From contig CAZFIM010000001.1 of assembly GCA_964519615.1 (NCBI GenBank), forward strand, positions 37,065 to 101,064: DNA of 64,000 nucleotides. Direction: 5' to 3'. Positions 5,753 through 64,000 of the stretch are shown piece after piece (the stretch's first letter is position 1; each line of letters starts with the position of its first letter). The position numbers and the translations under genes were made by a program. The notes below the pieces were generated by a model. That model saw only the letters and a program-made list of their open reading frames with translations. It was not told the origin of the DNA and searched no databases. The DNA is from an uncultured Dehalococcoidales bacterium (GTDB lineage Bacteria > Chloroflexota > Dehalococcoidia > GIF9 > UBA5629).

Positions 5753-6265
5753 ATGGCTGAAACAGTGAGAAAGACCCCCGATACCGGGCTGGTGGCCACC
5801 ATAGTACAGGACTTCGTACAGATGTGGACCAGGTTCGAGGCTATGCTTCATAACGAACTGGCGCTTACGCAAAACGGCAACGGCAATGTGCGTAGCGGCA
5901 GCAAATCGACTATCGAAAGCAGCTACAGCCTTTTCTACCGGGTTGGAAATGTTATTCAAAAAGAGAACGGCATGACCATGGGAGAGTTAAGCAGCGCTCT
6001 CGCCGTACCGCTCAGCACCGCTACACGTACCGTCAACTGGCTGGTTGATGCCGGTTATGTTGAAAGGCTCTCTGACCCCGAGGACAGACGGATTGTGCGT
6101 GTTGCCCTCACCCCCCGCGGCAGAGATCTCTACCGGACTATGCAGAAGTACATCGAGGATAGAGTTCATCAGATTCTATCCTGCCTTTCCGCACGCGAAC
6201 AGGCCACTCTCTTTTCCTTTATCGGCAGAGTGGCAGCTGAGCTCAAAGACGTCTCCTCACATTAA
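5753..6265 (+). CDS. MarR-family transcriptional regulator
   Basis: wHTH segment LSSALAVPLSTATRTVNWLVDAGYVERLSDPEDRRIVRVALTPRGRDL. Confidence 0.8.
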   Translation: MAETVRKTPDTGLVATIVQDFVQMWTRFEAMLHNELALTQNGNGNVRSGSKSTIESSYSLFYRVGNVIQKENGMTMGELSSALAVPLSTATRTVNWLVDAGYVERLSDPEDRRIVRVALTPRGRDLYRTMQKYIEDRVHQILSCLSAREQATLFSFIGRVAAELKDVSSH

Positions 6266-6305
6266 TTTTTTTAGCCATATATTTTCATATTGGAATAGTA
6301 CCATT

Positions 6306-7598
6306 ATGAAATATTATCTGGATAAAACGAAATTTATCGCCAGAAAGCAGGTCTGGGCGGGGCTCAAGACAGCGTTCTTTCTGGCGTTCAAGTCCACGCT
6401 GCGCGGAAACAGGTGGGCGCTGGTTTTGATCGTGCTGGTGCTCTCATTCAGCTTCGTCAATCTGGTATTTGTATCCTCGCTGATCGCAGGCGTCATAACA
6501 ACCATGGACGACCAGGTTGTCAACGCTATGGTAAGCAACGTGGTAATAAGCCCTGAAGACGAAGACTATTACCTGGAGAAGATAAGCAGTATAGAATCCG
6601 CCTTGCTCCAGCTTCCTGATGTGGAAGCGGCAGCGCCGCGGCTTTTAAGCAGCGCCTATATCGAATATAAATGGAAGGAAAAGGTATCTCAATCGGATAA
6701 GGGTAAGAGCGGCACCTGGGAGATCGTAGGCATCGATCCTCACAAGGAAAAGGAAGTCACCATCGTACATGAAAGCATGATCGAGGGCAGCTATCTTGAT
6801 CCGGACGACCGCGACCAGATTGTTCTCGGGGTGGAGATTACGGGGGGAGAAGGCGCTGTCACCTCTGAGTTCCTCACGCTGGGAGGAGTGCATACAGGGG
6901 ATAAGGTGCGCCTGACCTACCCCAACGGCGTACAGCGGGAGTACACGGTCAAGGGCATCTTCCGGGCGCGCGAAATGACGCGGGTAGACCATCAAGCCTA
7001 TGTCACCAGGAAGGAGCTGGCCTCCGTGCTTGACAGGCATGTTTTTTATGACCGGGCCAGCGAGATACTGGTTAAAACTAAACAAGGAGCAAGTGAGCCC
7101 TCCGTTATCAGCCGAATGCAGGCTTTGGGCATCCCGGGAAAGATCAGGACCTGGTACGAATACGGCGGCTCCATGCGAGGAGTGATGTCCACCTTTGAAA
7201 TCATCGGCGGCCTGATCGGCGGAGTGGGGCTGGTGGTGGCTGCTGCGGTGATGTTCATCGTCATCTATATCAATGTCATCGGCAAGAGGCGTCAGATAGG
7301 TATACTGCGCGCTATAGGCATACCTCAGCGGTCTATCATCATTTCATATCTGCTGCAGTCGCTTTTCTATGTGGTCATGGGCGTCATTATCGGATGGATG
7401 CTGGTGCAATTTGTGGTTGAACCCTATTTCCGCTACTACCCGCTCGATCTGCCCACAGGCCTGCTCAGCCTTACGGTAGAGTGGACAACGATGTTAGGCA
7501 CGGTCATGGGGCTCTTTATCGCAGGCGTGCTGGCGGGGCTGATACCGGCCTATACTATTATGAGACAGAAAATCATTAAAATAATCTGGGGAAGCTGA
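6306..7598 (+). CDS. ABC transporter permease, FtsX/MacB-like
   Basis: MKYYLDKTKF.. start at 6306. N-terminal TM, large extracytoplasmic domain, C-terminal 3-TM FtsX module. The long 5' extension of ORF 6045..7598 overlaps marR and is rejected. Confidence 0.8.
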   Translation: MKYYLDKTKFIARKQVWAGLKTAFFLAFKSTLRGNRWALVLIVLVLSFSFVNLVFVSSLIAGVITTMDDQVVNAMVSNVVISPEDEDYYLEKISSIESALLQLPDVEAAAPRLLSSAYIEYKWKEKVSQSDKGKSGTWEIVGIDPHKEKEVTIVHESMIEGSYLDPDDRDQIVLGVEITGGEGAVTSEFLTLGGVHTGDKVRLTYPNGVQREYTVKGIFRAREMTRVDHQAYVTRKELASVLDRHVFYDRASEILVKTKQGASEPSVISRMQALGIPGKIRTWYEYGGSMRGVMSTFEIIGGLIGGVGLVVAAAVMFIVIYINVIGKRRQIGILRAIGIPQRSIIISYLLQSLFYVVMGVIIGWMLVQFVVEPYFRYYPLDLPTGLLSLTVEWTTMLGTVMGLFIAGVLAGLIPAYTIMRQKIIKIIWGS

Positions 7599-9165: not shown

Positions 9166-10527
9166 ATGACAAAGATAAGATCAGACGCCGGTCAGGGCAA
9201 GCTCAAGCGGGTGGTTACCCTTATCCCGCTCATAGCCATTATGATAGGGCTTAATATAGGCGGCAGCCTATTTTTAATCACCGGCATAGCCGCCGGGCTT
9301 ACAGGACCTTCTCTCTTTATCGCACAGCTTATCTCCGCTGCACCGATACTGCTTGCCATTATCCCTTATCTGGTGCTTACTTCAGCCATACCGACCACAT
9401 GTGCCAACTACCATTATGCCAAGCTTTTTTCCCGGCCGCTGGCTGTAGCTGCATGGATGGGTCTTTTTATAGCTATACCGGTAGGTGCATTCCCTCTTTT
9501 TGCCATCGCTACCGGCAAGCTGATAGCCGTGATTTTACCCGGAACACCGGTAATCGCCGCCGCAATCGCCGTAATGACCATTTTCTATGCGGTCAATATC
9601 CTGGGTGTAAAATCCGCTGCCTATATTCAACTGGCGACAGTAGCCGTGCTGCTTATTTCGCTGCTGGTCTTTATCATTCCGGGTGTGCCGGCCATCGACA
9701 CTGCCAACCTGACGCCTCTGTTTACCGGCGGTATCACAGGGCTGATAGGGGCAGCAGCCCTCATCTATACGCTTTTGGCGGGCGGACTTTTCGGTATAGA
9801 GATAGGAAATGAGATCAAGAACGCCCGCAATACCATACCGAAGGCCCTCATTATCAGCATGGCCATTGTGCTGGTCCTGTACCTGTTTATCGAGGTGGTC
9901 GCAGTGGGGGTGATGGACTGGAAAATATTTGCTAAGGAAACGCTGGGCGCTCCCGCGGGCATGTTCCTCTCAGGATTCTGGCTGGACTTCTTCGTCATCG
10001 GCGGCGGCATACTGGCATCGGTAACCACCATCAATCTTACGCTGACTGTGGCCGGACGCTACGCCCTGGCATTTGCACGCGACGGTTTCTTCCCTAACTT
10101 TTTCGGCAGTATCAATAAAAGATTCGGCACCCCTCACTGGGGACTGACGCTGCCTTATATCATGTCGGTAATAACGCTGCTGCTCAACCCCCCGCTGGAA
10201 ATTCTCGCGGCTATGCTTAACTTCGGGCTTCTCCTTATGATAACACTGGTTCTCCTGGCTGCTTATAAACTGCCTTCCAGCCATCCGGAGATATTTGCCC
10301 AGTCGAGATGGAAATTTCATCCCCGGCTGGTCTCCGGCACCGCTCTATCAGCAGCAATAATAAACATCGTTTTTATGCTCCTCCTTGCCTACGCTCTTAA
10401 ATGGACTTTCCTGATCTTTGTAGCCGCTGCTATCGCAGGCGTAGTTCTCTATCATGTCAGGATCAGGCAGATAGGATTTGTTCCAAAAGGATTTCAGCTT
10501 GAACCTACGGAACAGCAAAAATCGTAG
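9166..10527 (+). CDS. APC-superfamily amino acid/polyamine permease
   Basis: About 12 TM helices with an APC-type profile. Confidence 0.75.
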   Translation: MTKIRSDAGQGKLKRVVTLIPLIAIMIGLNIGGSLFLITGIAAGLTGPSLFIAQLISAAPILLAIIPYLVLTSAIPTTCANYHYAKLFSRPLAVAAWMGLFIAIPVGAFPLFAIATGKLIAVILPGTPVIAAAIAVMTIFYAVNILGVKSAAYIQLATVAVLLISLLVFIIPGVPAIDTANLTPLFTGGITGLIGAAALIYTLLAGGLFGIEIGNEIKNARNTIPKALIISMAIVLVLYLFIEVVAVGVMDWKIFAKETLGAPAGMFLSGFWLDFFVIGGGILASVTTINLTLTVAGRYALAFARDGFFPNFFGSINKRFGTPHWGLTLPYIMSVITLLLNPPLEILAAMLNFGLLLMITLVLLAAYKLPSSHPEIFAQSRWKFHPRLVSGTALSAAIINIVFMLLLAYALKWTFLIFVAAAIAGVVLYHVRIRQIGFVPKGFQLEPTEQQKS

Positions 10528-51355: not shown

Positions 51356-51748
51356 CTACCAGACATAGCATAACAGCTCGCCGCCCATATTCCCTTTCCA
51401 CGCATTATGCCCAACCATGATTCCTTTGGGCGTCGAAACTATGGCAACACCGAGTCCGCCGTAGACACGCGGTATCTCGTTGTGCTTTACATATACACGC
51501 AGGCCCGGCTTGCTCACGCGTTCCAGCCCCGTTATTGCCGGTACGTTATCCGTATATTTCAACGTTATCTTGATGACTTTCTCCGGCTTACCCTTAACGA
51601 TGGTAAAATCCGTAATAAAGCCTTCCTCTTTTATTATTTTGGCAATAGCAAGCTTGGTATTGGAAAGGGGTACCAGCACACTATCATGCCGTGCAAGCAC
51701 TGCATTTCTTATTCTCGTTAACATATCTGCTATCGGATCTGTTACCAT
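51356..51748 (-). CDS. rpsH: 30S ribosomal protein S8
   Basis: uS8 translation. Confidence 0.95.
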
Positions 51749-51774
51749 CAGCTATTTCTCCACACTGCTTTCGA

Positions 51775-51960
51775 TTACCAACTTGACTTCCTCACCCCAG
51801 GGATTTGGCCGAGTAAAGCAAGCTGTCTAAAACAAATACGGCAAAGGCCGAATTTCCTGATGTAAGCACGCGATCTTCCGCATCGTTTACACCGGTTATG
51901 CTGTTGAACCTTATATTTCGGTGTCCTTTGCGACTTCATTATTTTCGATAATTTTGCCAT
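51775..51960 (-). CDS. rpsN: 30S ribosomal protein S14 type Z (zinc-binding, 61 aa)
   Basis: C-x2-C..C-x2-C short-form uS14. Confidence 0.95.
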
Positions 51961-51976
51961 GTACTACTCCAAGCGG

Positions 51977-52519
51977 TTAACTTTTTGCAAAGGGCATACC
52001 CAGGGATCTCAGTAATTCCCTGCCTTCCTCATCATTTCTGGCAGTTGTCACGATGACAATCTCCAGGCCGCGCAATTTATCCACTTTGTCATAATCGATC
52101 TCGGGGAATACTACCTGCTCCTTCATGCCCAGCGCGTAATTACCCTGACCGTCAAACGACTCCCGAGGCACTCCCTGAAAGTCTCTGATACGGGGCAAGA
52201 CAACGCTGACCAGCTTGTCATAAAAGTCATACATCCGCTTACCGCGCAAAGTCACCATCATTCCGATGGGCACTCCCGCCCGCAATTTAAAAGCGGCAAC
52301 AGACCTTTTTGCCCTCGTTATTACCGGTTTCTGCCCGGCTATAGCGGTCAGGTCTTTTTCAGCAGCTTCCATTGCCTTGGGATTCTGTATCGATTCCCCC
52401 ATACCTATATTGAGCACGATCTTGCTCAATTTCGGTACCTGCATAACATTCTCATATCCGAACTTTTTCATGAGCTCGGAAACGGTTTCCTTTTGATGTT
52501 TTTCTTTAATACGGGACAT
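51977..52519 (-). CDS. rplE: 50S ribosomal protein L5
   Basis: uL5 translation. Confidence 0.95.
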
Positions 52520-52536
52520 CTTCCACTAATCCTTCA

Positions 52537-52845
52537 CTAATCGATGATCTCTTTACATGACCGGCATACCCGTACACGTTTACCATCTTCCATTCTGCGA
52601 TATCCGACTCGCACCGGTTTATCACATTTATTGCAGATAATCATGACGTTCGATACGTTCAGCGGCCCTTCCATCTCGATAATCCCGGCCTGCCGTGCCT
52701 GTCCGCTTGTACGGGAGTGGCGTTTAATCATATTCAGACCGTCAACCAGAATCGTTCCCTTCGTAGGAAGCGACTTACGGACGCGGCCTCTTTTCCCGCG
52801 GTCTTTACCGGCGATTATCAGTACTGTATCATTTTTCTTAATCTT
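52537..52845 (-). CDS. rplX: 50S ribosomal protein L24
   Basis: Start MKIKKND at 52845 with AGAGG RBS. The track ORF has a spurious 5' extension. Confidence 0.9.
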
Positions 52846-52849
52846 CATC

Positions 52850-53218
52850 TTATAGAACCTCTGGAGCGAGCGATACAATCTTCATGAAATTCTTATCTCG
52901 CAGCTCTCTACCCACCGGGCCGAAAATGCGTGTTCCCCTGGGGTTTTCTTTTTCATCTAAAATTACAGCGGCATTCTCATCAAATTTAACAAAGGAGCCG
53001 TCTTTGCGGTGATATTGCCGTGCAACACGTACGATAACAGCCTTGGTGACATCACCCTTTTTTACCATGCCGCCGGGTATGGCACGTTTTACCGTGACCA
53101 CAATAATATCTCCTATACTGGCATAGCGGCGTCTGCTGCCGCCAAGAACCTTGATGCACAGAACCTGGCGCGCTCCTGTATTGTCAGCAACTCGTAATCT
53201 GGTCTCGGCCTGTATCAT
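52850..53218 (-). CDS. rplN: 50S ribosomal protein L14
   Basis: uL14 translation. Confidence 0.95.
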
Positions 53219-53221
53219 TGC

Positions 53222-53521
53222 TTACTCACTCTCACTCACCTCTCCGATCTCCGCCGGCTGAATCTCCGCCCTTTCTTTCTTCTGCAGAATCTCTACAATA
53301 CGCCAGCGTTTATCTTTCGAGAGAGGACGCGTCTCCATTATTTTAACGGTATCACCGATATGACTTTCATTCTGCTCATCATGAGCTTTGAAATTGGCCC
53401 GATGACGGACTACTTTTTTATAAAGCGGATGCTGTCTGGTGATCTCCACCTGTACAATCCGCGTTTTGTCCATCTTGTCGCTGATTACCGTACCATTGCG
53501 AACTTTTCGTATTTTCTCCAT
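53222..53521 (-). CDS. rpsQ: 30S ribosomal protein S17
   Basis: uS17 translation. Confidence 0.95.
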
Positions 53522-53522
53522 A

Positions 53523-53720
53523 CTATCCTCTATCGAGTTCCCTCTCCCGCATAATCGTTTTCATACGGGCGATAGTCTTTTTTACACGTGAAATCTCACG
53601 GTGATTAACCAATTGCCGTGTAGCCAGGCGAAAACGCAGGTTAAACAGCTCCTGATACGACTCTTCCAGTTTCTTTTGTAATTCCTGATCGCCGAGCGAT
53701 CTGATTTCGGCTATCTTCAC
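53523..53720 (-). CDS. rpmC: 50S ribosomal protein L29
   Basis: uL29 translation. Confidence 0.9.
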
Positions 53721-54148
53721 CGCTCTTCACTCCCTGTGACAGCTTCTTTTATTACAAATCTTGTCGAAATAGGCAGCTTATAAGAGGCCAGGTGCATCGC
53801 TTCCTTTGCCATAGGCTCTTTAATACCGCTGATCTCAAACAGCATTCTGCCCGGTTTCACTACGGCTACCCAATGATCAGGAGCGCCTTTACCGCTGCCC
53901 ATCCTGGTCTCCGCCGCTTTCTTGGTCACCGGCTTGTCCGGGAAAATCCTTATCCACATCTTTCCGCCGCGGCGCAGATACCTGACCATCACACGACGGG
54001 CTGACTCGATCTGCCTGGCTGTAACCCATGCCGCTTCCTGAGCCTGCAAGCCGAATTCGCCAAATACTACTGTGTTTCCTGAGTTCGCTTTACCCCTTCG
54101 GTTTCCCTTGTGAGTCTTACGAAACTTCACTCTCTTCGGCTGTAGCAC
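53717..54148 (-). CDS. rplP: 50S ribosomal protein L16
   Basis: [11 protein letters not shown].. uL16. 32-nt overlap with the rpsC 3' end. Confidence 0.95.
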
Positions 54149-54788
54149 TTTCTCTCCTTACTTCCGGTACGATATTGCCTTTATAGATCCACACCTTGAC
54201 ACCAATCACTCCCATCTGTGTATGGGCCTCTGCCAAACCATAGCTGATATCAGCACTTAAGGTATGCAGCGGCAACCTGCCCTGCCGTGTGGTCTCGCGG
54301 CGTGCGATCTCATTGCCGCCCAGCCTGCCGGCACAGCTGATCCTGACACCCTTAGCACCGGCCTGCATTGTACGGAAAGCAGCCTGCTTCATAGCACGTC
54401 TGAACGCTACCCTGCGCTCAAGCTGCTCCGCTATATTCTGGGCCACCAGAATGGCCTCAAGCTCCGGCTGTTCGACCTCTTTAACCGAGAGGCGCACTCT
54501 CTTGCCGCAGGCCGCCTCAAGCCCCATACGCAGTTCCTCTGCCCGCTGTCCACCGCGGCCGATCACCACGCCGGGACGCGAGGAGTAAAGGGTAACCACC
54601 ACTTCTACTCCCTGCCTGTCTACTTCTACATTGGCAACCCCGCCATCACGGCAATTTTTAGCAACGACCTTGCGCAACGCCAAGTCTTCATGCAACATCT
54701 CCGTGTAATGTTTCTGGTCATACCACTTGGCATGCCAGTCTCTTATCACTCCGATTCTAAACCCATACGGGTGTACCTTATGTCCCAC
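54117..54788 (-). CDS. rpsC: 30S ribosomal protein S3
   Basis: uS3 KH domains, with an acidic C-terminal tail. Confidence 0.95.
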
Positions 54789-55127
54789 CTATATACCCTC
54801 CTCGTCAACGGATACTACTATATGCGTGGAACGCTTCAAGATAGGATTGACACGCCCCCGCCCCTGCGCCCTGAAGCGCTTGAGGGTATGTCCTTCATTT
54901 GCTTGTATGTCCACTATTTTTAAATCGGCAGGGGTCATCTCGTAGTTATTTTCAGCATTGGCCGCCGCCGACTTAATGACTTTCAAGACTGCCCGCGCCG
55001 ATGCAGTGGGGACGAACTGAAGCATCGAAACGGCTTCTTCAACCTTCTTCCCCCTGACCATATCCACAGCCAGCCTCACTTTTCGGGAGGGTATACCTAT
55101 GTCTTTTCCTATTGCTGTTACTTTCAT
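54789..55127 (-). CDS. rplV: 50S ribosomal protein L22
   Basis: uL22 translation. Confidence 0.95.
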   Translation of the reverse strand: MKVTAIGKDIGIPSRKVRLAVDMVRGKKVEEAVSMLQFVPTASARAVLKVIKSAAANAENNYEMTPADLKIVDIQANEGHTLKRFRAQGRGRVNPILKRSTHIVVSVDEEGI

Positions 55128-55137
55128 GGCACCCTAT

Positions 55138-55428
55138 CTAATTCTTTTTCTTCTGGACAGTGACCGTAGCCTTGCTCACATGCCCGCGGAACGTCCGCGT
55201 AACAGCGAACTCTCCCAGTTTATGTCCAACCATGTTTTCAGTTATATATATGGGTACATGACGCCTGCCGTCATGTACCGCAATCGTGTGACCGATCATC
55301 TGCGGCATTACCGTCGATGCCCTGGCCCAGGTCTTAATCACCGTCTTCTCATTTGTCGAATTAAGCTTCTCAATCTTCTTAAGCAGCTTCTCATCGCAAT
55401 AAGGACCTTTTTTAGATGATCTCGACAT
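55138..55428 (-). CDS. rpsS: 30S ribosomal protein S19
   Basis: uS19 translation. Confidence 0.95.
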
Positions 55429-55457
55429 ACTCCTGCTACCTCTTTGTTACTCTCTAT

Positions 55458-56288
55458 TTATTTCTCAGCCTTACGCCTGCGTACTATCAGCCTGTCGGAA
55501 GGCTTGCTGCCGCGGGTCTTCTTGCCCAGAGCCGGTTTGCCCCAGGGCGTCTTGGGAGCCATGCCCCTTGGCGCCCTGCCTTCGCCGCCGCCGTGGGGAT
55601 GATCGCGCGGGGTCATGGCGGAACCGCGTACCTGCGGCCGTCTGCCCTTAAGGCGTATGCGCCCCGCTTTACCCGCCTTGATACCGCGATGTTCCTGGTT
55701 GCCCAACTGGCCTATGGTCGCCAGGCATCCCACCAGGAAGCGCCGCATCTCGCCGGAAGGCAAACGTACCAGTGCATATTTACCTTCCTTGCCCAATAGC
55801 TGCGCTGCGACTCCCGCACTGCGTACAAGCTGCCCACCTTTGCCGGGCTCAAGCTCAATATTGTGAATCAGCGTACCTGCGGGAATGTTATCCAGCGGAA
55901 GCGTATTCCCCGGCTTTATCTCAGCGCCTTCTCCCGCACCGATTGTCTGGCCCACACTCAAGCCGACCGGCGCCAGTATATAGCGCTTGTCGCCATCAAG
56001 ATAGTGTATCAGCGCTATGCGCGCCGAGCGGTTCGGGTCATACTCAATGGTAGCAACCTTACCGGGTACTCCCATTTTGTCCCGCTTGAAATCTATAATT
56101 CTCATCTTACGCTTTACCCCACCCCCGCGGTGCCTCACCGTGATAACACCTCTGTTGTTGCGGCCCGCTTGCTTCTTAAGCGGCAATAACAGAGATTTCT
56201 CCGGTGCGGACGCAGTAAGCTCTTCGAATGAAGCACTTACCATGCCCCGCCTTGATGGTGAAGTTGGGCGATATGTTTTCAGTGCCAA
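55458..56288 (-). CDS. rplB: 50S ribosomal protein L2 (TTG start)
   Basis: [13 protein letters not shown].. uL2. Initiates at TTG (56288), preceded by GGGAGTAGGT. Confidence 0.9.
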
Positions 56289-56419
56289 AATACCTACTCC
56301 CTATGTTATGGGTGTCGTCTTTGCCATCGGTTCTTCTTCATGAGTTTCCGATGCTTGTGCCGTGCCATCTTCTTTCTTCTTTTCTTGATTACAGAACCCA
56401 ATGTTGTACCCTTACCTTT

Positions 56420-56704
56420 TTATACTCCCTCGAAAAATTCTATTTTATTACCGGGCTCAAGGGTCACCACAGCCTTTTTCATGGGCGGTGTCTGCTTATA
56501 GCGCTTGCCAAACCTCTTCAGCTTACCGGGCGTTGTGATCACATTAACATTCGTCACCTTGACCTTGAACGCTTTCTCCACGGCCTGTTTGACCTGGGGC
56601 TTGGTAGCGGCTTTCTCGATCTCAAATACATAGCAATTGCTCTCTTTGAGTATTGAGCTTTTCTCTGTAACTAACGGTCTTTTTAACACTTCATATATAT
56701 GCAT
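56420..56704 (-). CDS. rplW: 50S ribosomal protein L23
   Basis: uL23 translation. Followed by an unusual 131-nt spacer before rplB. Confidence 0.95.
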   Translation of the reverse strand: MHIYEVLKRPLVTEKSSILKESNCYVFEIEKAATKPQVKQAVEKAFKVKVTNVNVITTPGKLKRFGKRYKQTPPMKKAVVTLEPGNKIEFFEGV

Positions 56705-56719
56705 GATACCGCTCTATCC

Positions 56720-57373
56720 TTATTTGCCTGCCTTAGCTTTTTGCGGCTCTTTATTTGCCCACAACTCCTCGACGGCCTTGACCGCACCAGCGCTCATTAT
56801 AAGAGACTTACTGGCCAGCATATCGGCTACGTTCAGGAGGCGGGCGGGTGTGGTGTTCACCCCTTCTATATTAGAAGCTGAGAGTATCAGATTTTCCTGG
56901 TTCTCCATGGTGGCAATCAGCACCGAAGTGCCGATCCCCAGCGCAACCAGCATATCATATATCATTCTCGTTTTCGGCTGCTCAAGGTCGAAATCCTCGA
57001 CAATCTTAAGGGCGCCGCTGCGGGCCTTATCAGAGAGCACACATTTGATTGCCAGCCGTCTCATTTTCTTGGGCATCTCCTGGCGGTAGCTGCGAGGATG
57101 CGGGCCAAAGACAACCCCGCCGCCCCTGCGCAGCGGAGATTTCATGCTGCCGGCGCGGGCGCGCCCCGTATGTTTCTGCATATAGAGCTTCTTGGTGCTT
57201 TTGGATACATCGGCCCGTGTCTGAGTATCAGCCGTACCCTGGCGGCAGTTGGCAAGATGCCGTACCAGCGCCTGATGCACAACGGCCTCATTAAAAGGCA
57301 CTGCGAATACATCATCCCGCAGGTCCATAGACCCTGCTATCTTACCTTGAACGGAATAAATATCTACCTTCAC
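56720..57373 (-). CDS. rplD: 50S ribosomal protein L4
   Basis: uL4 translation. Confidence 0.95.
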   Translation of the reverse strand: MKVDIYSVQGKIAGSMDLRDDVFAVPFNEAVVHQALVRHLANCRQGTADTQTRADVSKSTKKLYMQKHTGRARAGSMKSPLRRGGGVVFGPHPRSYRQEMPKKMRRLAIKCVLSDKARSGALKIVEDFDLEQPKTRMIYDMLVALGIGTSVLIATMENQENLILSASNIEGVNTTPARLLNVADMLASKSLIMSAGAVKAVEELWANKEPQKAKAGK

Positions 57374-57379
57374 TATCTC

Positions 57380-57997
57380 TTAACCCTTCGATACTTTATG
57401 AATGAGAAGCAGCCCCGTTTTCGCTCCGGGAACAGCACCTTTTACCAGCAATAAGTGTTTTTCAGCATCGACGCTGACGACTTCAAGGTTCCTCATCGTA
57501 ACGCGCTGGCTGCCCAGATGCCCCGCCATTCGCAGACCCTTCCATACCCTGCCGGGTGTAGACCCTGCGCCGATGGAGCCGGGAGCACGGGATCTGTCCG
57601 ACTGCCCGTGCGTCTTGGGACCGCCTTTGAAGCCGTGGCGTTTCATTCCGCCTGCGAACCCTTTACCTTTCGAGACGCCAATGACGTTGACCCGGTCACC
57701 CGATTGCAGCATCTCCACACTAACCTGCTGGCCGACCTCATAAGGTCCGACATCGTTCATTCTGAACTCGCGCAGATTCCTGAACATCCCGACATCGCCG
57801 AGATGGCCTTTCTCCGCCTTATTCAGACGCTTGCCCTGACCAAAGCAAAGCTGGATAGCATTATAACCGTCTTTCTTCTCTGTTTTTACCTGTGACACAA
57901 AGCAGGGACCGGCCTCTATAGCAGTAACCACCACTTCCCGGCCGTCCAGATACAGCTGTGTCATTCCTATTTTTTTTCCTAATAAACCTTCAGACAT
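57380..57997 (-). CDS. rplC: 50S ribosomal protein L3
   Basis: Start MSEGLLGKKIGMTQ at 57997. The track ORF is extended upstream into rpsJ. Confidence 0.9.
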   Translation of the reverse strand: MSEGLLGKKIGMTQLYLDGREVVVTAIEAGPCFVSQVKTEKKDGYNAIQLCFGQGKRLNKAEKGHLGDVGMFRNLREFRMNDVGPYEVGQQVSVEMLQSGDRVNVIGVSKGKGFAGGMKRHGFKGGPKTHGQSDRSRAPGSIGAGSTPGRVWKGLRMAGHLGSQRVTMRNLEVVSVDAEKHLLLVKGAVPGAKTGLLLIHKVSKG

Positions 57998-58004
57998 GAT
58001 CAAC

Positions 58005-58313
58005 CTACAGTCTAATATCAATCTCCACGCCCGACGGCAGCTGGAGCTGGGTCAACGCATCAATTGTTTTGGTAGTCGGGCCGACAATATCGATAACCCG
58101 CTTGTGCGTTCTTATCTCGAACTGCTCGCGCGAGTCTTTATCGATGTGCGGTGAGCGGATAACACAGAACTTCTCGATGCGTGTAGGCAGGGGAACCGGT
58201 CCCGCTACCACTGCGCCCGTACGCTCAGCTGTTTCCACGATCTGCTCAGCCGACTGATCGACCAACCTGTGATCGTAACCCCTTACTTTTATACGTATAT
58301 TTTGCTTGGGCAT
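58005..58313 (-). CDS. rpsJ: 30S ribosomal protein S10
   Basis: uS10 translation. Confidence 0.95.
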
Positions 58314-58316
58314 CTC

Positions 58317-60392
58317 TTATATACCTCTGCGACCTGTTATCTCAGCAGCCTGTTCCGCAGGCAATTGCTGATAGCTGTGAAACTGTAGTGAATACGTGGC
58401 TCTGCCCTGGCTTATGGATCTCAGTTGAGTCGCATACCCGAAAGTATCAGCCAGTGGAACGAGCGCATGAATCACTGCGGTCTCGCCGTGAGTCTCAATG
58501 CCTTCGATATGTCCTCTTCTGGAATTCAAATCACCGATAACATCGCCCATGAACTCCGCCGGCGTCACCAGCTCCAGTTCCATAATGGGCTCCAGGAGAA
58601 CAGATTTGGCCCTGCGCAGTCCCTCTTTCACCCCAATGGAAGCGGCCATCTTGAAAGCCATCTCGGAGGAATCAACCTCGTGATAGCTTCCATCGGTAAG
58701 AGTAACCTTGACATCGAGAACCGGATATCCGGCCAGCACACCGGTATCCAGCGCGTCTTTTGCGCCTGCCGCAATAGCATTGTAATATTCTTTGGGTATT
58801 GCGCCACCCTTCACTTTATTAACAAAGCTGAAACCGCTCCCTTTCTCTCCCGGCTCCAGCGTAAGCACCACGTGGCCGTACTGGCCGTGGCCGCCGGTCT
58901 GCCGCACAAACTTGCCTTCGGCTTCAGCGGAGGACGTAATTGCTTCTTTATAAGATACCTGAGGTTTTCCTACCCGTACACCTACATTATATTCGTGCAA
59001 TACGCGGTCGATGAGCACCTCGAGGTGCAGTTCTCCCATACCGGAGATGAGCGTCTGCCCTGTCTCCTGATCTGTACGGATCTTGAATGTAGGATCTTCC
59101 TCGGACAGCTTGTTCAAGGCTTCGCCCAGCTTATCCTGGTCGGCCTTGCTGTTGGGCTCGACTGCCATGGAGATCACCGGCTCCGGGAACCGTATATTTT
59201 CCAGCAGTACCGGCTTGACCATCTCACAGAGCGTGTCGCCGGTAAAGGTGTTCTTCAGCCCTACCGTTGCGGCGATCGTGCCGGTATCAACCTCTTTTAT
59301 CTCCTCGCGGCGGTTGGCATGCATGAGCAGCAGCCTTCCGATGCGCTCTTTCTGCCCCTTGCTTGAATTATATACCTGAGCGCCCTCTTTGACCTTGCCT
59401 GAATAGACCCTGAAATAGACGAGCCTTCCCATGAAGGGGTCAGCCACCACTTTGAATGCCAGTGCAGCAAAGGGGGCATCATCGCTTGCTTCACGGGTAG
59501 CTTTATCACCGGAACTTGCATCGATCACGTTGATAGGCGGGACATCCAGAGGCGAGGGAAGATAGTCTATAACTCCGTTAAGCAGGAGCTGTACTCCTTT
59601 ATTTCTTAAAGCCGTACCGCAGAAGACAGGCACGATGCGGCTGGTTGTGGTCAGCTTTCTGATAGCGGCCTTGAGGTCTCCCTCCGTAATCTCCCTGTCC
59701 TCTAAAAAGAGCAGCATGAGTTTATCATCATTCTCGGCAAGTTTTTCAATCATTTTCTGGCGGTGCTGCTCGACCCTGCTCCTCTCCTCCTCCGGAATAT
59801 CTATGGCAACCAGAGGATCATCCACATCCGGCTCGAACCTCCAGGCCCTGTTGCCTACCAGGTCAACAACACCGTAAAAGGAGCTTTCCGCCCCCAGCGG
59901 CATTTGCATAAGTACCGTTGTAGCGCCCAGGCGTTCTTCTATCATTTTTACGGTTCGGTAGAAATCTGCGCCTACGCGGTCCATTTTATTGATAAAACAA
60001 ATACGAGGTACCCTGTATTTATCAGCCTGTCTCCAGACCGTTTCAGATTGAGCCTCAACGCCAGCCACGGCATCCAGCACTACCACGCCGCCGTCGAGCA
60101 CGCGCAAACTGCGCTCAACTTCCGCCGTGAAATCCACGTGGCCCGGGGTATCGATAATATTAATGCGGTGATCTTTCCAGTGGCAGGTAGTTGCTGCGGC
60201 GGTAATAGTGATACCGCGCTCGCGCTCCTGCTGCATCCAGTCCATTACGGCCGTCCCATCATCGACATCACCTATCTTATAGGTGCGCCCGGTATGGAAA
60301 AGAATCCGCTCTGTGGTCGTGGTCTTACCGGCATCGATATGCGCGATAATCCCTATGTTTCTGACTTTTTCCAGTGGATAGGTTCTTTCCAT
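58317..60392 (-). CDS. fusA: elongation factor G
   Basis: G-domain [21 protein letters not shown]. Start chosen at [15 protein letters not shown] (60392); the track ORF extends to 60458. Confidence 0.9.
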
Positions 60393-60451
60393 AACAGCCT
60401 GTCCCGCAGCGGCTTTGGCCTTACGTTTGCTTTGGTTTAAATCGGTGAGTG

Positions 60452-60922
60452 CTACCATCGGTAATGAGCGTACGCCTTATTGGACTCGGCCATTCTATGG
60501 GTATCCTGACGCTTCTTGACCGCCGCCCCTTCGCCCTGTGCGGCATCGCCAATTTCTGACGCAAGCCTGCTTGCCATCGACTGACCTTTACGTGACCTGG
60601 CAAAATCGACCAGCCATCGGATAGCCATGATCTGTCCGCGCGCAGGTGTAACCTCAACGGGCACCTGATAGGTGGCACCGCCCACCCGCCTGGCTTTCAC
60701 CTGGACGAGAGGGGTAACGTTTTTCATCGCCTGCTCGAAGATTTCCATGGGATCACGCTTCAATTTTCCACTGACGATCTCCAGCGCATCATAGACAACG
60801 CGTTCGGCGGTAGATTTCTTACCGTCAAGCATTACTTTGTTAATGAACTTGGTCAATACCTGGCTCCCGTATCTGGGGTCAGGAATTATCGGCCGTTTTA
60901 TTGCCCTGGCACGTCGTGACAT
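60452..60922 (-). CDS. rpsG: 30S ribosomal protein S7
   Basis: uS7 translation. Confidence 0.95.
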
Positions 60923-60935
60923 TCATGTACTCCTG

Positions 60936-61358
60936 CTATGATATAGCCTTTCCTGCTTTGGCGCCGTATTTGCTGCGCCCCTGCTGGCGGTTTTCGACAC
61001 CTGCCGTGTCCAGCGCGCCGCGAACGATATGATAGCGGACGCCGGGCAGGTCCTTGACCCTGCCGCCGCGGATGAGCACTACCGAGTGCTCCTGCAGGTT
61101 ATGGCCTTCACCGGGGATATATGCGGTAACTTCGATATGATTGGTCAGGCGCACACGCGCGATCTTGCGCAGCGCCGAGTTAGGCTTCTTGGGCGTCATT
61201 GTCTTGACCTGGACACACACTCCGCGCTTCTGAGGCGAGTTGGTATCCCGGCGCGTCCTGTTCTTAAGCGTATTAAAAGTCACGCCCAGGGCAGGAGCCT
61301 TGGTCTTCTTTATAGGGCGACTTCGCCCCTTCCGCACTAACTGATTGACGGTTGGCAT
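60936..61358 (-). CDS. rpsL: 30S ribosomal protein S12
   Basis: uS12 with [20 protein letters not shown]. Confidence 0.95.
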
Positions 61359-61552
61359 CGTATGTTTTTTACCTCTATTCCTATTTCCGGTTTGACGTTT
61401 TGCCTAGTGCTTCCCCTAGAAACTAAAAAGCCACCCAGTTATCTACCGCTCCGGTTTCCGCCCCCTCAAGGGCGGCTCTGGCTGCGGCTCAACCAGCCGG
61501 CTCTTTCAGGCTTTCAACGCCTTTACTAGTGGCTAGCTAGACACAAAGCATT

Positions 61553-61582
61553 ACTATACCACAAGAATAAGAGGGGTGTCAA
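61553..61582 (-). promoter_or_regulatory. candidate sigma70 promoter of the str operon (TTGACA-N18-TATAGT) with ~190-nt GC-rich structured leader
   Basis: On the minus strand: TTGACA (61582-61577), 18-nt spacer, TATAGT (61558-61553). Confidence 0.35.
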
Positions 61583-61688
61583 TAGGATAAATGAGAGGGT
61601 AGTGTATCAGTTTGAAAGGAGAAAAAATGTTAACCAATAGTACATCCATATACCCCTATTGTCAATATTGTTTTGGTAGAATAGGGGC

Positions 61689-62240
61689 ATGTGGAAAGCA
61701 ACGAAATGGCTTTTGGGAGCTACAGCAACAATGGTAGCCCTATATTTTGCTTCACTCCAAATTCCGGATAAACTTCCACCAAATATTTCTCTGATTATAT
61801 TTATTTTAGCTTGTATTTTCGCTACTTTATTTATATTTACTGGCATTGTATCTGCATATCTTTTTGTTAAAAAGCATCTATATCCTATCCGGTTCATTGA
61901 AGATGTTAAATGTACTTATTGGACTAAGGAAAAGCAAATGCAGGTAAGCTATCTGTTTTGTGATTATTCGGAATCTAATACCTTTACAGTTAATTGTATG
62001 GCAATTTTTAATGAGCAGGTCGTAAATATAGATAGATGTAGTCACTTAAACATGCTTGGTGATCAAGCAGCAAAATGTATAAAGGGTAAGAGAATATTTA
62101 TAGAACAATCAAAACACGATGTGGAAGTCATTATTCCTGATAAGTGTAAGATAACAGTACGTGTGAAACCATACGGTTTTGGGTGGAGGACTATACAGAA
62201 AACAGCAGAAGTTAAAACTCTGATTGTCGATCACGGATAG
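61689..62240 (+). CDS. hypothetical two-TM membrane protein with Cys-rich C-terminal soluble domain (AT-rich islet)
   Basis: Two N-terminal hydrophobic helices. No recognisable family. Local composition is markedly AT-rich. Confidence 0.4.
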   Translation: MWKATKWLLGATATMVALYFASLQIPDKLPPNISLIIFILACIFATLFIFTGIVSAYLFVKKHLYPIRFIEDVKCTYWTKEKQMQVSYLFCDYSESNTFTVNCMAIFNEQVVNIDRCSHLNMLGDQAAKCIKGKRIFIEQSKHDVEVIIPDKCKITVRVKPYGFGWRTIQKTAEVKTLIVDHG

Positions 62241-62373
62241 GTGATTTTATTAATCAGGCTAATTATTTCTTCTATCGTCCATATATGATCGGTTACTTTT
62301 GCTGCCATAGCTGGCGTTTTCCTCGGTATCCAGTAAACTCTAATCTATCTAGCGAGTAAATAAACTTTCACTA

Positions 62374-63144
62374 TTATTGTTGGTTTTTTAAAGGCAATTG
62401 AGAGATACATAGATGTTCATCAAGATTATCATATCCAATATCATAGTGCCAGTCAGTAATTTGGTTTAAACGTCTTGCGCCACCAGGTAGAAGTTCCCCA
62501 CCACGTGTTTTAAAAGCTACATTTACTACCCTTTTACCGCAATCTTTTACAACTTCAACAGCAGGAACATAATCTTGATCACCCGTAACAATAATAGCAA
62601 TATCATATATATCTTTGAGTGTAATTAAGTCGGAGGCCAATTTTACATCCACAGCTTTTTCTTTCCCTATTTTTTGTGTAAATAAATCATATCTACAATA
62701 TCCAGCTCTACGAAATTCAACAGCCTTTTGTTGAGAAGAAATACCATCTTGTATAGCAGTCCAACCATTAAATCTGTTTTGGAATTTCTCTCTTGTTTGC
62801 TCTAGTTCATTAATGAATGTTTTCATTCGATCAATAATCATGTCATCACTGAGTGTATCAAGTTCTGCTTTGTATGGTTCATGTTTGGAAAGCAGGTTCC
62901 GTGCATTAGATTGTTCTTTCTCGGGATTTGGGAAATGATAAGGGAAAAAGTCCACAGATTTAATAACGTACCAATAAGTTCTAATGCGCTCTCCTTCTTC
63001 ATCTGTACACTTTGATACAATCCAATTAAATAGTTCAGTCCAATTTGCTTGTTTTGGAAGGTAATGTTGCTGTGGGAATTCAGGAAATAGCTTAACTATG
63101 GAGTGCCGGAAATTTTCGCCATCAACAAAAACACAAACCCTCAT
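62374..63144 (-). CDS. NYN/LabA-like nuclease-domain protein with ~120-aa internal insertion
   Basis: MRVCVFVDGENF (NYN N-terminal Asp motif) and ..AVDVKLASDLITL..YDIAIIVTGDQDYVPAVEVVKDCGKRVV (NYN C-terminal motifs). ATG at 63144 with a G-rich RBS. Confidence 0.65.
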   Translation of the reverse strand: MRVCVFVDGENFRHSIVKLFPEFPQQHYLPKQANWTELFNWIVSKCTDEEGERIRTYWYVIKSVDFFPYHFPNPEKEQSNARNLLSKHEPYKAELDTLSDDMIIDRMKTFINELEQTREKFQNRFNGWTAIQDGISSQQKAVEFRRAGYCRYDLFTQKIGKEKAVDVKLASDLITLKDIYDIAIIVTGDQDYVPAVEVVKDCGKRVVNVAFKTRGGELLPGGARRLNQITDWHYDIGYDNLDEHLCISQLPLKNQQ

Positions 63145-63434
63145 AATTTCCCCCCATATAATAGTAATGGCGACAGACACGCAGTCCGTCGCCAAACCAA
63201 ACTAATCACTTAGGAAGCACCTAAGTTTCATATGATATTATGCACATTTTGTGATATTTGTCAATAATTTTTCCCTGATTTTTGCAGTACTTTTTTACCA
63301 GATTATTATTAAAGAAAATTCAAACTGACTTACCATCAATGAGATGTCTTCCACCCCTTGGGCGGAAAGCTATAAAAGGATAGCACGTGACGGACAGAAC
63401 GAAAAGACTGGATATAATAGTAATTACTTTAAGC

Positions 63435-63728
63435 TTACGGATGTGAGGTGATTGCTATGAGTGTGATCACTCCCCGGGCAGTCCCATAATACCAGAATAC
63501 TCTGTAGGCTGCCGGAGTATTTTGCTCTGCGTAAGCTTCAAAAATCTTTTCCTCGTGCGGGCCCTTCAGTGATGAATACTCATGAGTCTGCAGACTTTTA
63601 TGGCTGGGGTCCTGTGCCAGGAAACGGATTGTTTTTACGACGGCTTTATAGCGCTTCTTCTGTGAAGGATCATTTTTTATGACATTATCATTATTTCTAG
63701 CTTCGTACGTCCATTCTACAGCAAACAA
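63435..63728 (-). pseudogene. RelE/ParE-superfamily toxin-like ORF lacking an ATG start; possible degraded type II TA module
   Basis: C-terminal ..AAYRVFWYYGTARGVITLIAITSHP resembles the RelE/ParE core. The only in-frame start is TTG. Immediately upstream (63742-63869) lies a start-less frame ending ..SIERGLSDAAQGKLSKVDLNNL, which looks like an RHH antitoxin C-terminus. Confidence 0.3.
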
Positions 63729-63802
63729 TACGGTTAACCTTTACAGATTGTTGAGGTCGACTTTTGATAATTTACCTTGCGCGGCATCAGAAAGGCCGCG
63801 CT

Positions 63803-64000
63803 CTATGGAGGCAAGCGCTTGCCTGTTGTTAAATAACCAGCATTCCGAAACAGGAATTGTAACCTGCGGTCAAGTATTATCTGCCCGATGCTGTTCCTGT
63901 GAATATGATAGGTAACACCTTCCTGAAGTGAAGTTACGCGAACAGTAACACTGTTCTTTGAATCCGGCTTTACGCCATCAGCTACTTTAACAAAACCCTC
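63803..64000 (-). CDS. partial ORF running off the window end (unknown product)
   Basis: The minus frame is open from 64000 to the stop at 63803-63805 (..RVTSLQEGVTYHIHRNSIGQIILDRRLQFLFRNAGYLTTGKRLPP). Its start lies outside the window. Confidence 0.2.
   Translation of the reverse strand, partial: EGFVKVADGVKPDSKNSVTVRVTSLQEGVTYHIHRNSIGQIILDRRLQFLFRNAGYLTTGKRLPP

Follow-up and report, generated by a model that had tools for sequence, protein, structure and literature searches.

The window analysed here is a 64,000-nucleotide (nt) stretch of DNA from an uncultured Dehalococcoidales bacterium (contig CAZFIM010000001.1), and window coordinates are used throughout. Its last part, from 61600 to 64000, is an AT-rich patch that lies next to the promoter of the ribosomal str operon and carries a gene for a NYN-domain nuclease, preceded by an RNA motif of two hairpins. 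This motif is well supported as a new structured-RNA family, whatever its mechanism may be. With a confidence that stays somewhat below even, we propose that the patch combines a membrane-protein gene, a relic of an IS1-family transposase gene, a NYN module of ~1.1 kb and a type II toxin-antitoxin cassette whose toxin has a RelE/ParE fold, and that the NYN module would act as a type III-like RNA/nuclease toxin-antitoxin system. The proposal rests on the module architecture, the conservation of the RNA structure, the exclusive association of RNA and NYN gene, the intact active site, the autonomy of the module and its strain variability.

A covarying two-hairpin RNA accompanies the NYN gene

The NYN module is arranged in the order promoter-like site, two-hairpin RNA of ~65 nt, terminator-like hairpin, Shine-Dalgarno sequence and NYN gene. 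In the window its features are:

63237..63264, minus strand: promoter-like site TTGACA-16-CATAAT with 11/12 consensus matches; transcription is predicted to start a few nt before hairpin 1
63160..63229, minus strand: two-hairpin RNA motif, ~65 nt (covariance-model match of 61.3 bits, E 7.6e-15; fold z-score -5.3)
63226..63208, minus strand: hairpin 1, ACUUAGG-UGCUU-CCUAAGU, followed by a 13-nt linker
63194..63168, minus strand: hairpin 2, terminator-like, UGGCGACGGAC-UGCGU-GUCUGUCGCCA, with a U-rich tail after it (match in the terminator scan)
63150..63155, minus strand: Shine-Dalgarno sequence GGGGGG, read from the sequence, 5 nt ahead of the NYN ATG (63144)
62374..63144, minus strand: NYN-domain nuclease gene (Pfam PF01936), 256 amino acids (aa) from the ATG, convergent with the membrane-protein gene

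A 273-aa open reading frame (ORF) that begins mechanically at a TTG was rejected as the NYN start, because it traverses the leader hairpin.

The RNA had been overlooked in a preliminary description of the window. Folding of the 100 nt upstream of NYN genes returned the same two hairpins almost everywhere, with the consensus loop UGCGU in both. In a MAFFT alignment of 56 leaders, 89.7% of cells are paired, and double-sided changes are found in 17 of the 19 base pairs (167 cells). The covariation score of the alignment is 0.52, compared to 0.28 for shuffles (0 of 500 reached 0.52) and 0.12-0.17 for controls with slid partners. A covariance model built from this alignment was used to search 1.33 Mb on both strands and gave 69 matches at E<=1e-4, every one of them adjoining a NYN gene. 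Counted by species, the motif adjoins NYN in at least 67 of 80, and in ~95% of loci it precedes the NYN start by 16-45 nt and has the orientation of the gene.

The association was also approached from the RNA side, scanning metagenome contigs with a degenerate DNA pattern and sorting the 80 returned loci by the covariance model. Nineteen were true motifs, 18 of them with a NYN start 16-26 nt downstream and one with a NYN remnant of 16 codons, while NYN was present at none of the 61 chance matches. The covariation was reproduced in the 19 metagenome instances.

Promoter-like sigma-70 sites, identified by consensus matches only, occur within 70 nt upstream of 39 of the 69 motif instances (57%), in comparison to 0.8% of control windows. 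Their -10 element ends at a median distance of 12 nt ahead of the motif (most commonly 6-9 nt), and four or more consecutive T come after the motif in 51 of the 69 instances.

Searches with Rfam 15 at the gathering score detected no family in seven NYN loci, apart from tRNAs elsewhere in them; for L043, there were just sub-threshold matches below the gathering score, mostly over the region of hairpin 2 and the terminator. A literature search on NYN/DUF88 proteins in connection with type III or RNA-antitoxin systems, structured RNAs or anti-phage defence found no earlier description of the pairing. With its exclusive gene association and its absence from Rfam 15, the motif is a candidate for submission as a family and for metagenome annotation.

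About 11 loci from Patescibacteria and Gammaproteobacteria have a variant leader class of the same architecture, with CCUCGG-AAUUGU-CCGAGG as hairpin 1. The linker of the variant contains GAAUA, its terminator reads AAAGGCGGAC...GUCCGCCUUU, and it is accompanied by a replacement of NYN residue R214. These variant leaders were located ~100 nt upstream of NYN in L033, L055, L059, L060, L061, L064, L067, L070, L074 and L075. Two single loci deviate further. In L151 (1858-2042, minus strand), no more than 16 codons of the NYN start (MSKRICIFVDGENFRR) follow a complete motif; the sequence beyond them is unrelated, as if a deletion had removed the nuclease gene and left the RNA in place. L048 has two tandem low-scoring motif copies (9859-9916 and 9930-9982, 27 bits each) in front of one NYN gene; the leader is aberrant and R225 of the protein is replaced by E.

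The NYN protein has an intact predicted active site and a family-wide insert

The Pfam NYN model (PF01936) matches the protein with 53.5 bits at a cut-off of 24.2, and the match covers residues 139-212 only. In an AlphaFold 2 (AF2) model with a predicted local distance difference test score (pLDDT) of 91.9, the N-terminal DGEN motif is separated from the C-terminal core by a long helical hairpin (about residues 78-138) with extended beta-hairpins on either side. The preliminary description had reported a 256-aa NYN protein with a large insertion; both the reading frame and the insert hold, but the insert is a trait of the whole family and not peculiar to this copy.

Using Foldseek, the best match to the model in the PDB is the LabA-like NYN protein 2qip (E 4.2e-5, target TM-score 0.65), followed by the T5 flap endonuclease, and the matches in BFVD are LabA-like or NYN proteins. 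A comparison of the NYN family profile with PDB sequences gave nothing at E<=1 except two chance coiled-coil matches. The window protein shares the catalytic fold and the acidic motifs with the LabA-like/DUF88 NYN proteins (PF01936; 2qip is VPA0982 of Vibrio parahaemolyticus). In contrast to 2qip, it is ~90 residues longer and has the helical-hairpin insert, the extended beta-hairpins, the motifs EFRRAG and LLPGGARRL and the dedicated upstream RNA.

None of the residues D8, N11, D166, D172, D189 and D191 varies among 74 homologues or in any full-length relative at the 80 species loci. Judging by this conservation, the acidic residues are those expected of an active NYN nuclease and the predicted active site is intact. 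Altogether, the 74 sequences have 45 invariant columns, and EFRRAG and LLPGGARRL are largely invariant as well. Among the PADLOC models, the window protein matches HEC-09 (2e-8, residues 149-212) and the NYN model (6e-6), in both cases with the NYN core only.

The NYN unit is an autonomous, patchily distributed module

Homologues of the NYN protein form 1018 protein clusters at E<=1e-3; the 120 best of them are full-length and have 55-69% identity. Of 185,579 species genomes, at least 104 contain a relative. The hosts belong to Dehalococcoidia, Planctomycetota, Desulfobacterota, Nitrospirota, Patescibacteria, Gammaproteobacteria and others, with a similar identity to the query throughout; the closest locus among the GTDB species representatives has 62% identity.

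The surroundings of the gene are not conserved. The most frequent neighbour family occurs at four of 80 NYN loci, and there is no conserved neighbourhood even among ~20 Dehalococcoidia genomes. The 143 genes flanking NYN loci carry 169 different Pfam families, mostly metabolic, with a DNA methylase in two of the 143. None of the window neighbours of NYN recurs beside NYN elsewhere, and a multi-gene NYN system was rejected on this ground. Likewise, a housekeeping LabA ortholog with a conserved neighbourhood, which the preliminary description had named as the finding that would speak against its reading, is not what the loci show.

In all 80 loci, the NYN gene has a content of guanine plus cytosine (GC) below that of its flanks, with a mean difference of ~10 points. 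In the 52 loci with long flanks, this dip is confined to -300..+800 around the NYN start codon. Since the dip is module-sized, we regard the NYN unit as an autonomous module of ~1.1 kb. The 3' boundary of the module in the window coincides with the breakpoint against a close relative, which is described below.

In three Planctomycetota loci, a tRNA gene lies ~1.5-2.6 kb upstream of the NYN module (L043 7798-7871, L057 2915-2989, L071 7691-7763); this could be an integration hotspot or plain shared synteny.

The module lies in a strain-variable patch upstream of the str promoter

The window end falls inside the AT-rich patch, the far side of which is beyond 64000. Besides the NYN module, the following features are found in the patch and at its edge:

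61553..61582, minus strand: promoter-like site of the str (rpsL-rpsG-fusA) operon, sigma-70-like, TTGACA-18-TATAGT plus extended TG, 11/12 consensus matches (consensus scan)
61689..62240, plus strand: gene for a membrane-anchored protein (183 aa; small, uncharacterised family) with an RCTYW..EKQ motif and two conserved Cys; 99% identity in the relative L081
62249..62335, minus strand: 3' remnant of an IS1-family transposase gene, ~29 codons, 90% identity to the L081 remnant (tblastn)
63435..63728, minus strand: intact gene with TTG start for a predicted 97-aa RelE/ParE-fold toxin (>1250 homologous clusters; AF2 and Foldseek)
63741..64000, minus strand: partner gene of the toxin, presumed antitoxin, frameshifted; its first ~8 codons lie beyond 64000

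The GC content falls from 0.515 at 61200-61599 to 0.328 at 61600-61999, which bears out the sharp drop after the rpsL leader that had been reported before. It stays at 0.32-0.39 until ~63400, compared to 0.50 in the rest of the window and 0.50-0.57 in the str and S10 genes, and is back at ~0.43-0.45 in the last 600 bases. The str promoter-like site is the native edge of the patch, and its position fits the expected rpsL promoter; the foreign-looking DNA therefore borders directly on the upstream side of this promoter.

A search with the membrane protein located the close relative L081 (GCA_030153525.1, contig JASEKR010006896.1). DNA alignment of L081 with window positions 51674..62318 showed 98.3% identity over 10.6 kb, followed by complete divergence. 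The breakpoint of homology is at ~62318-62335, ~40-55 nt past the NYN stop codon. The two genomes have in common the AT-rich gene for the membrane protein and a 3'-terminal piece of the IS1-family transposase gene (minus strand). After the IS1 relic, L081 continues within ~80 nt into a radical-SAM gene (PF19864) with native GC (55-62%); the window has the NYN gene and the toxin-antitoxin cassette instead. Neither the radical-SAM gene nor a second toxin-antitoxin cassette was found elsewhere in the window. The 90% protein clusters of the window NYN and the window toxin have one member each.

As L081 does not have the NYN and toxin-antitoxin segment at this site, the segment is strain-variable, and in this sense the islet proposed in the preliminary description stands. 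Composition and the comparison with L081 support the view that 61600-64000 is a foreign-looking, strain-variable patch of what appear to be small independent modules upstream of the str promoter. Direct or inverted repeats marking an integration site were searched for at the flanks of the patch, with just short chance-level matches as a result. The window contains no tRNA genes and no match to an Rfam 15 family at E<=1.

The L081 assembly is error-rich, with 60 alignment gaps per 10.6 kb and split ribosomal-protein genes. Thus, frameshifts in L081 are to be read as assembly errors, and the one in its membrane-protein gene is not informative. Positions 1-10000 of L081 show several broken essential genes: L4 is split, elongation factor G is truncated and S10 is fused to L3.

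A type III-like RNA-nuclease system and its alternatives

In type III toxin-antitoxin loci, a single promoter is followed by a short RNA and an endoribonuclease gene, and the Rho-independent terminator between these two ensures that the RNA is more abundant than the toxin mRNA (PMC5086642). The layout of the NYN module is the same, and on this basis we propose that a terminated RNA holds NYN inactive. Most transcripts would end at hairpin 2 and build up as a small RNA of ~65 nt, and occasional read-through would yield the NYN mRNA. NYN, presumably a metal-dependent nuclease, would bind the two near-identical UGCGU loops, probably as a dimer via the helical insert, and be held inactive. If the RNA supply fell, free NYN would cleave cellular or invading RNA, so that the module could act in addiction or in abortive infection. 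We infer RNA-protein binding, NYN toxicity, neutralisation and an anti-phage role by analogy.

With ToxIN, CptIN and TenpIN, the NYN module has in common the single promoter, the non-coding RNA, the Rho-independent terminator and the nuclease gene, all predicted here from the sequence; it is also compact, chromosomal and patchily distributed, and has no protein partner. A terminator does lie between RNA and NYN gene, and consensus matches indicate a single upstream promoter. The differences concern both components. The type III antitoxin is a tandem array of 34-36-nt direct repeats processed by the toxin, whereas the RNA of the NYN module consists of two covarying hairpins with similar pentaloops, and its conserved motif includes the terminator hairpin. 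The type III toxin has a ToxN/Kid-like fold, in contrast to the NYN/PIN-like nuclease of the window.

An argument for an RNA that acts in trans comes from three Planctomycetota species in which the motif is inverted (L037 9786-9849, L045 9803-9864, L054 9820-9881, minus strand). Here, it occupies the strand opposite to that of NYN, in divergent orientation and at an upstream distance of 120-200 nt, and is thus outside the NYN transcript. By eye, a possible -10 box of its own is clear in L037 and less so in L045. The inverted motif has 80-87% identity among the three species, with compensatory changes, compared to ~55% (background) for the flanking DNA and 62-69% for the NYN proteins. The retention of the motif in this position suggests a trans-acting small RNA.

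Protein and RNA also vary together to some extent. The conserved arginines R214 and R225 are both retained in 47 of 48 loci with at least one UGCGU loop and in 11 of 30 loci with none, and the variant RNA class goes with the NYN protein clade of Patescibacteria and Gammaproteobacteria.

Several findings weigh against the type III-like proposal. By Pfam and by fold, the nuclease is NYN/PIN-like and not a member of the ToxN, CptN or TenpN toxin families, and no direct-repeat array was found in the NYN leader of the window. Because of the different toxin fold and the missing repeat array, the module falls outside the known type III families. The terminator tail in the window, UUACUAUUAU, is weaker than that of most relatives. 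The three inverted loci represent one clade and probably a single inversion event. R214 ranks just seventh by mutual information, and the correlation of R214 and R225 with the loop sequence is confounded by phylogeny, so we treat the protein-RNA co-variation as a hint. The position of the motif close to the gene and on its strand in ~95% of loci is what a leader acting in cis would show. No family member was detected in 2.9 M viral contigs (IMG/VR), 50,697 phage records and 72,556 plasmids, and there is no enrichment of defence or mobile genes near NYN relatives (80 loci, 143 flanking genes). Finally, the defence literature found here contains a single tested NYN candidate, HEC-09 from Hma defence systems, and it did not protect against the phages used (bioRxiv 10.1101/2024.01.29.577857).

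The alternative that survives best, although we consider it unlikely, is that the two-hairpin element acts as a leader in cis only: NYN or another factor would bind the UGCGU loops in the 5' untranslated region of its own mRNA and set the NYN level through cleavage or through the terminator efficiency of hairpin 2, and the short terminated RNA would be a by-product. Autoregulation via their own leaders is known for RNase E and RNase III. As is generally known, the autoregulatory leaders of rne, rnc and pnp share with the NYN element a structured leader that stands before a ribonuclease gene and can be recognised by the enzyme; in contrast to it, they lack a separate promoter-plus-terminator unit and are subject to cleavage or binding in cis, whereas the NYN element survives inversion away from the gene. 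In addition to the position of the motif, the terminator directly before the Shine-Dalgarno sequence fits a cis-acting leader. So does the fold of the window leader with its ribosome-binding site (63145-63232, minus strand), in which CUUCCUA, the 3' arm of hairpin 1, is base-paired with GGGGGG at minimum free energy. This pairing is peculiar to the window, and the Shine-Dalgarno/hairpin-1 alternative fold was rejected as a general switch since it is not present in other loci; neither a conserved antiterminator nor another alternative pairing was seen there. Against a purely cis-acting element, three species keep the inverted motif under purifying selection, outside the NYN transcript and with a possible -10 box of its own.

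The preliminary description had regarded NYN as a stand-alone RNase effector and as typical cargo of a defence or mobile islet beside toxin-antitoxin relics, in which case the RNA would have no role. The AT-rich, strain-variable DNA, the IS1 relic and the toxin-antitoxin cassette alongside, and the partial PADLOC matches are in line with this idea. However, the matches are restricted to the NYN core: HEC-09 (PADLOC PDLC04163) shares the core similarity, but has another N-terminal domain and is embedded in Hma defence, and the family described here is not found within defence systems. The neighbours in 80 other species are ordinary, mostly metabolic genes, viral contigs, phages and plasmids hold no members, and a dedicated structured RNA almost always accompanies the gene. 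The stand-alone effector is therefore improbable, and the assignment as typical islet cargo was not borne out.

A vertically inherited housekeeping enzyme of LabA-like RNA processing, with low GC and leader reflecting expression control, would be compatible with the high conservation of the protein (45 invariant columns) and with the single chromosomal copy per genome in the retrieved loci. It is very improbable in view of the distribution over ~104 of 185,579 species in unrelated phyla at similar identity, the lack of a conserved neighbourhood even in ~20 Dehalococcoidia genomes, the absence from this site in a relative of 98.3% identity together with the single-member 90% cluster, and the sharp, module-sized GC dip. 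The least probable explanation, an assembly artefact in which the window or L081 is chimeric at the IS1 relic, could appeal to a breakpoint in repeat-type sequence and to the error-rich L081 assembly with its gaps and split ribosomal-protein genes, but the essential genes in the window are intact, the IS fragment of ~90 nt is below what misleads most assemblers, and the breakpoint equals the 3' boundary of the NYN module that 52 other loci set independently at ~50 nt past the stop codon.

Returning to the type III-like proposal, a broader version of it, which we put forward as doubtful, is that the promoter-RNA-terminator-NYN unit represents a previously unrecognised RNA-antitoxin (type III-like) or abortive-infection family. 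In this family, a NYN/PIN-like ribonuclease would be kept inactive by a dedicated two-hairpin RNA that it recognises at the UGCGU loops, and the unit would spread as an autonomous, AT-rich module of ~1.1 kb via the chromosomes of uncultured Dehalococcoidia, Planctomycetota, Desulfobacterota, Nitrospirota, Patescibacteria and others. To our knowledge, all characterised type III systems have ToxN-like toxins and repeat-array RNAs. If the proposal is true, NYN and the two-hairpin RNA would extend the RNA-antitoxin systems by a protein fold and an RNA architecture that are new to them, and would provide the first functional handle on the NYN/LabA-like family with its more than 1000 clusters without an assigned role. 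The module of ~1.1 kb is small enough for synthesis and a direct test in E. coli.

The adjacent toxin-antitoxin cassette

The family of the ORF upstream of the NYN module comprises more than 1250 clusters. Almost every one has a length of exactly 97 aa and 67-74% identity, and none carries a Pfam domain. The AF2 model (pLDDT 89.8) has the topology beta-alpha-alpha-beta4. Its top Foldseek matches in the PDB are archaeal RelE (1wmi), YoeB/ParE (6n90), E. coli RelE (4fxe), YafQ and HigB2; the matches to 1wmi, 6n90, 4fxe, 7v5y and 9lew have query TM-scores of 0.56-0.70 and a probability of 1.00. At the sequence level, the ParE_toxin model (PF05016 as an example) gave weak matches in eight of 39 family members (best E 0.0033) and none for the window protein, and neither the toxin nor its profile has a sequence match in the PDB. 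From its family and its predicted structure, the 97-aa ORF is a full-length, intact RelE/ParE-fold protein.

The preliminary description had already recognised a RelE/ParE-like ORF without ATG, and interpreted it as decayed. While the fold and the absence of an ATG proved right, the decay did not: the window toxin retains every invariant residue of the family, and a TTG start is present in all three relatives inspected (LFEIEW, LFELEW, LFQLDW), so that the missing ATG is probably a family trait.

In three unrelated contexts, the toxin gene is preceded at a distance of 11-15 nt by a partner gene of 91-94 aa, and the arrangement in the window is the same. After repair of the frame, the window partner aligns with its relatives at 66% identity. 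A 1-nt deletion at ~63868-63870 (GAC CCG to GACCG) shifts the frame after codon ~52 and gives two frames in tblastn; it may be a real mutation or a consensus error. What had been described as a start-less, ribbon-helix-helix (RHH)-like C-terminus is most of this partner gene, and the RHH fold found no support, as neither the partner nor its profile has a match in Pfam, NCBIfam, PADLOC or the PDB.

The pair resembles the RelE/ParE/YoeB type II toxins in the beta-alpha-alpha-beta4 fold and in the small partner gene upstream of the toxin; it differs in that neither gene of the window pair passes a Pfam or NCBIfam model and in the TTG starts of the three inspected relatives. The 97-aa toxin and its ~93-aa partner thus form a large two-gene family without a curated model. 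Pairs of toxin and partner were located in the window (63435-64000) and in L082 (3704-4294), L085 (3714-4294) and L088 (3705-4294). In L088 and L089, the pair lies downstream of a gene for a terminase large subunit, and in L085 it is near a phage-type integrase.

The membrane-protein gene and the IS1 relic

An exhaustive HMMER search of 1.84 billion proteins with the 183-aa membrane protein found 24 representatives at E<=1e-3, 14 of them at E<=1e-10, and the relatives are mostly 150-190 aa long. The protein is hence no orphan, as had been assumed. No family or function could be assigned to it with the Pfam, NCBIfam and PADLOC models. The family alignment has the core RCTYW..EKQ..C and conserves two of the seven Cys of the window copy. 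In a Kyte-Doolittle analysis, the stretch 27-61 is the only strongly hydrophobic one and the N-terminal stretch is weaker. Of the earlier picture of a Cys-rich protein with two transmembrane segments, the ORF itself holds, while the weaker second stretch and the two conserved Cys speak against the remainder.

The IS1 sequence at 62249..62335 had been overlooked in the preliminary description. The longer remnant in L081 matches annotated IS1 family transposases with a tblastn E of 2e-17. With only ~29 codons left, the window sequence is by homology a relic and not an element.

Further observations in the window

At 58005-61358, rpsL-rpsG-fusA leads straight into rpsJ, with no tuf gene between them. 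On the plus strand, 5753..6265 and 6045..7598 are long overlapping ORFs, which may be one frameshifted gene or the result of a mis-called start.

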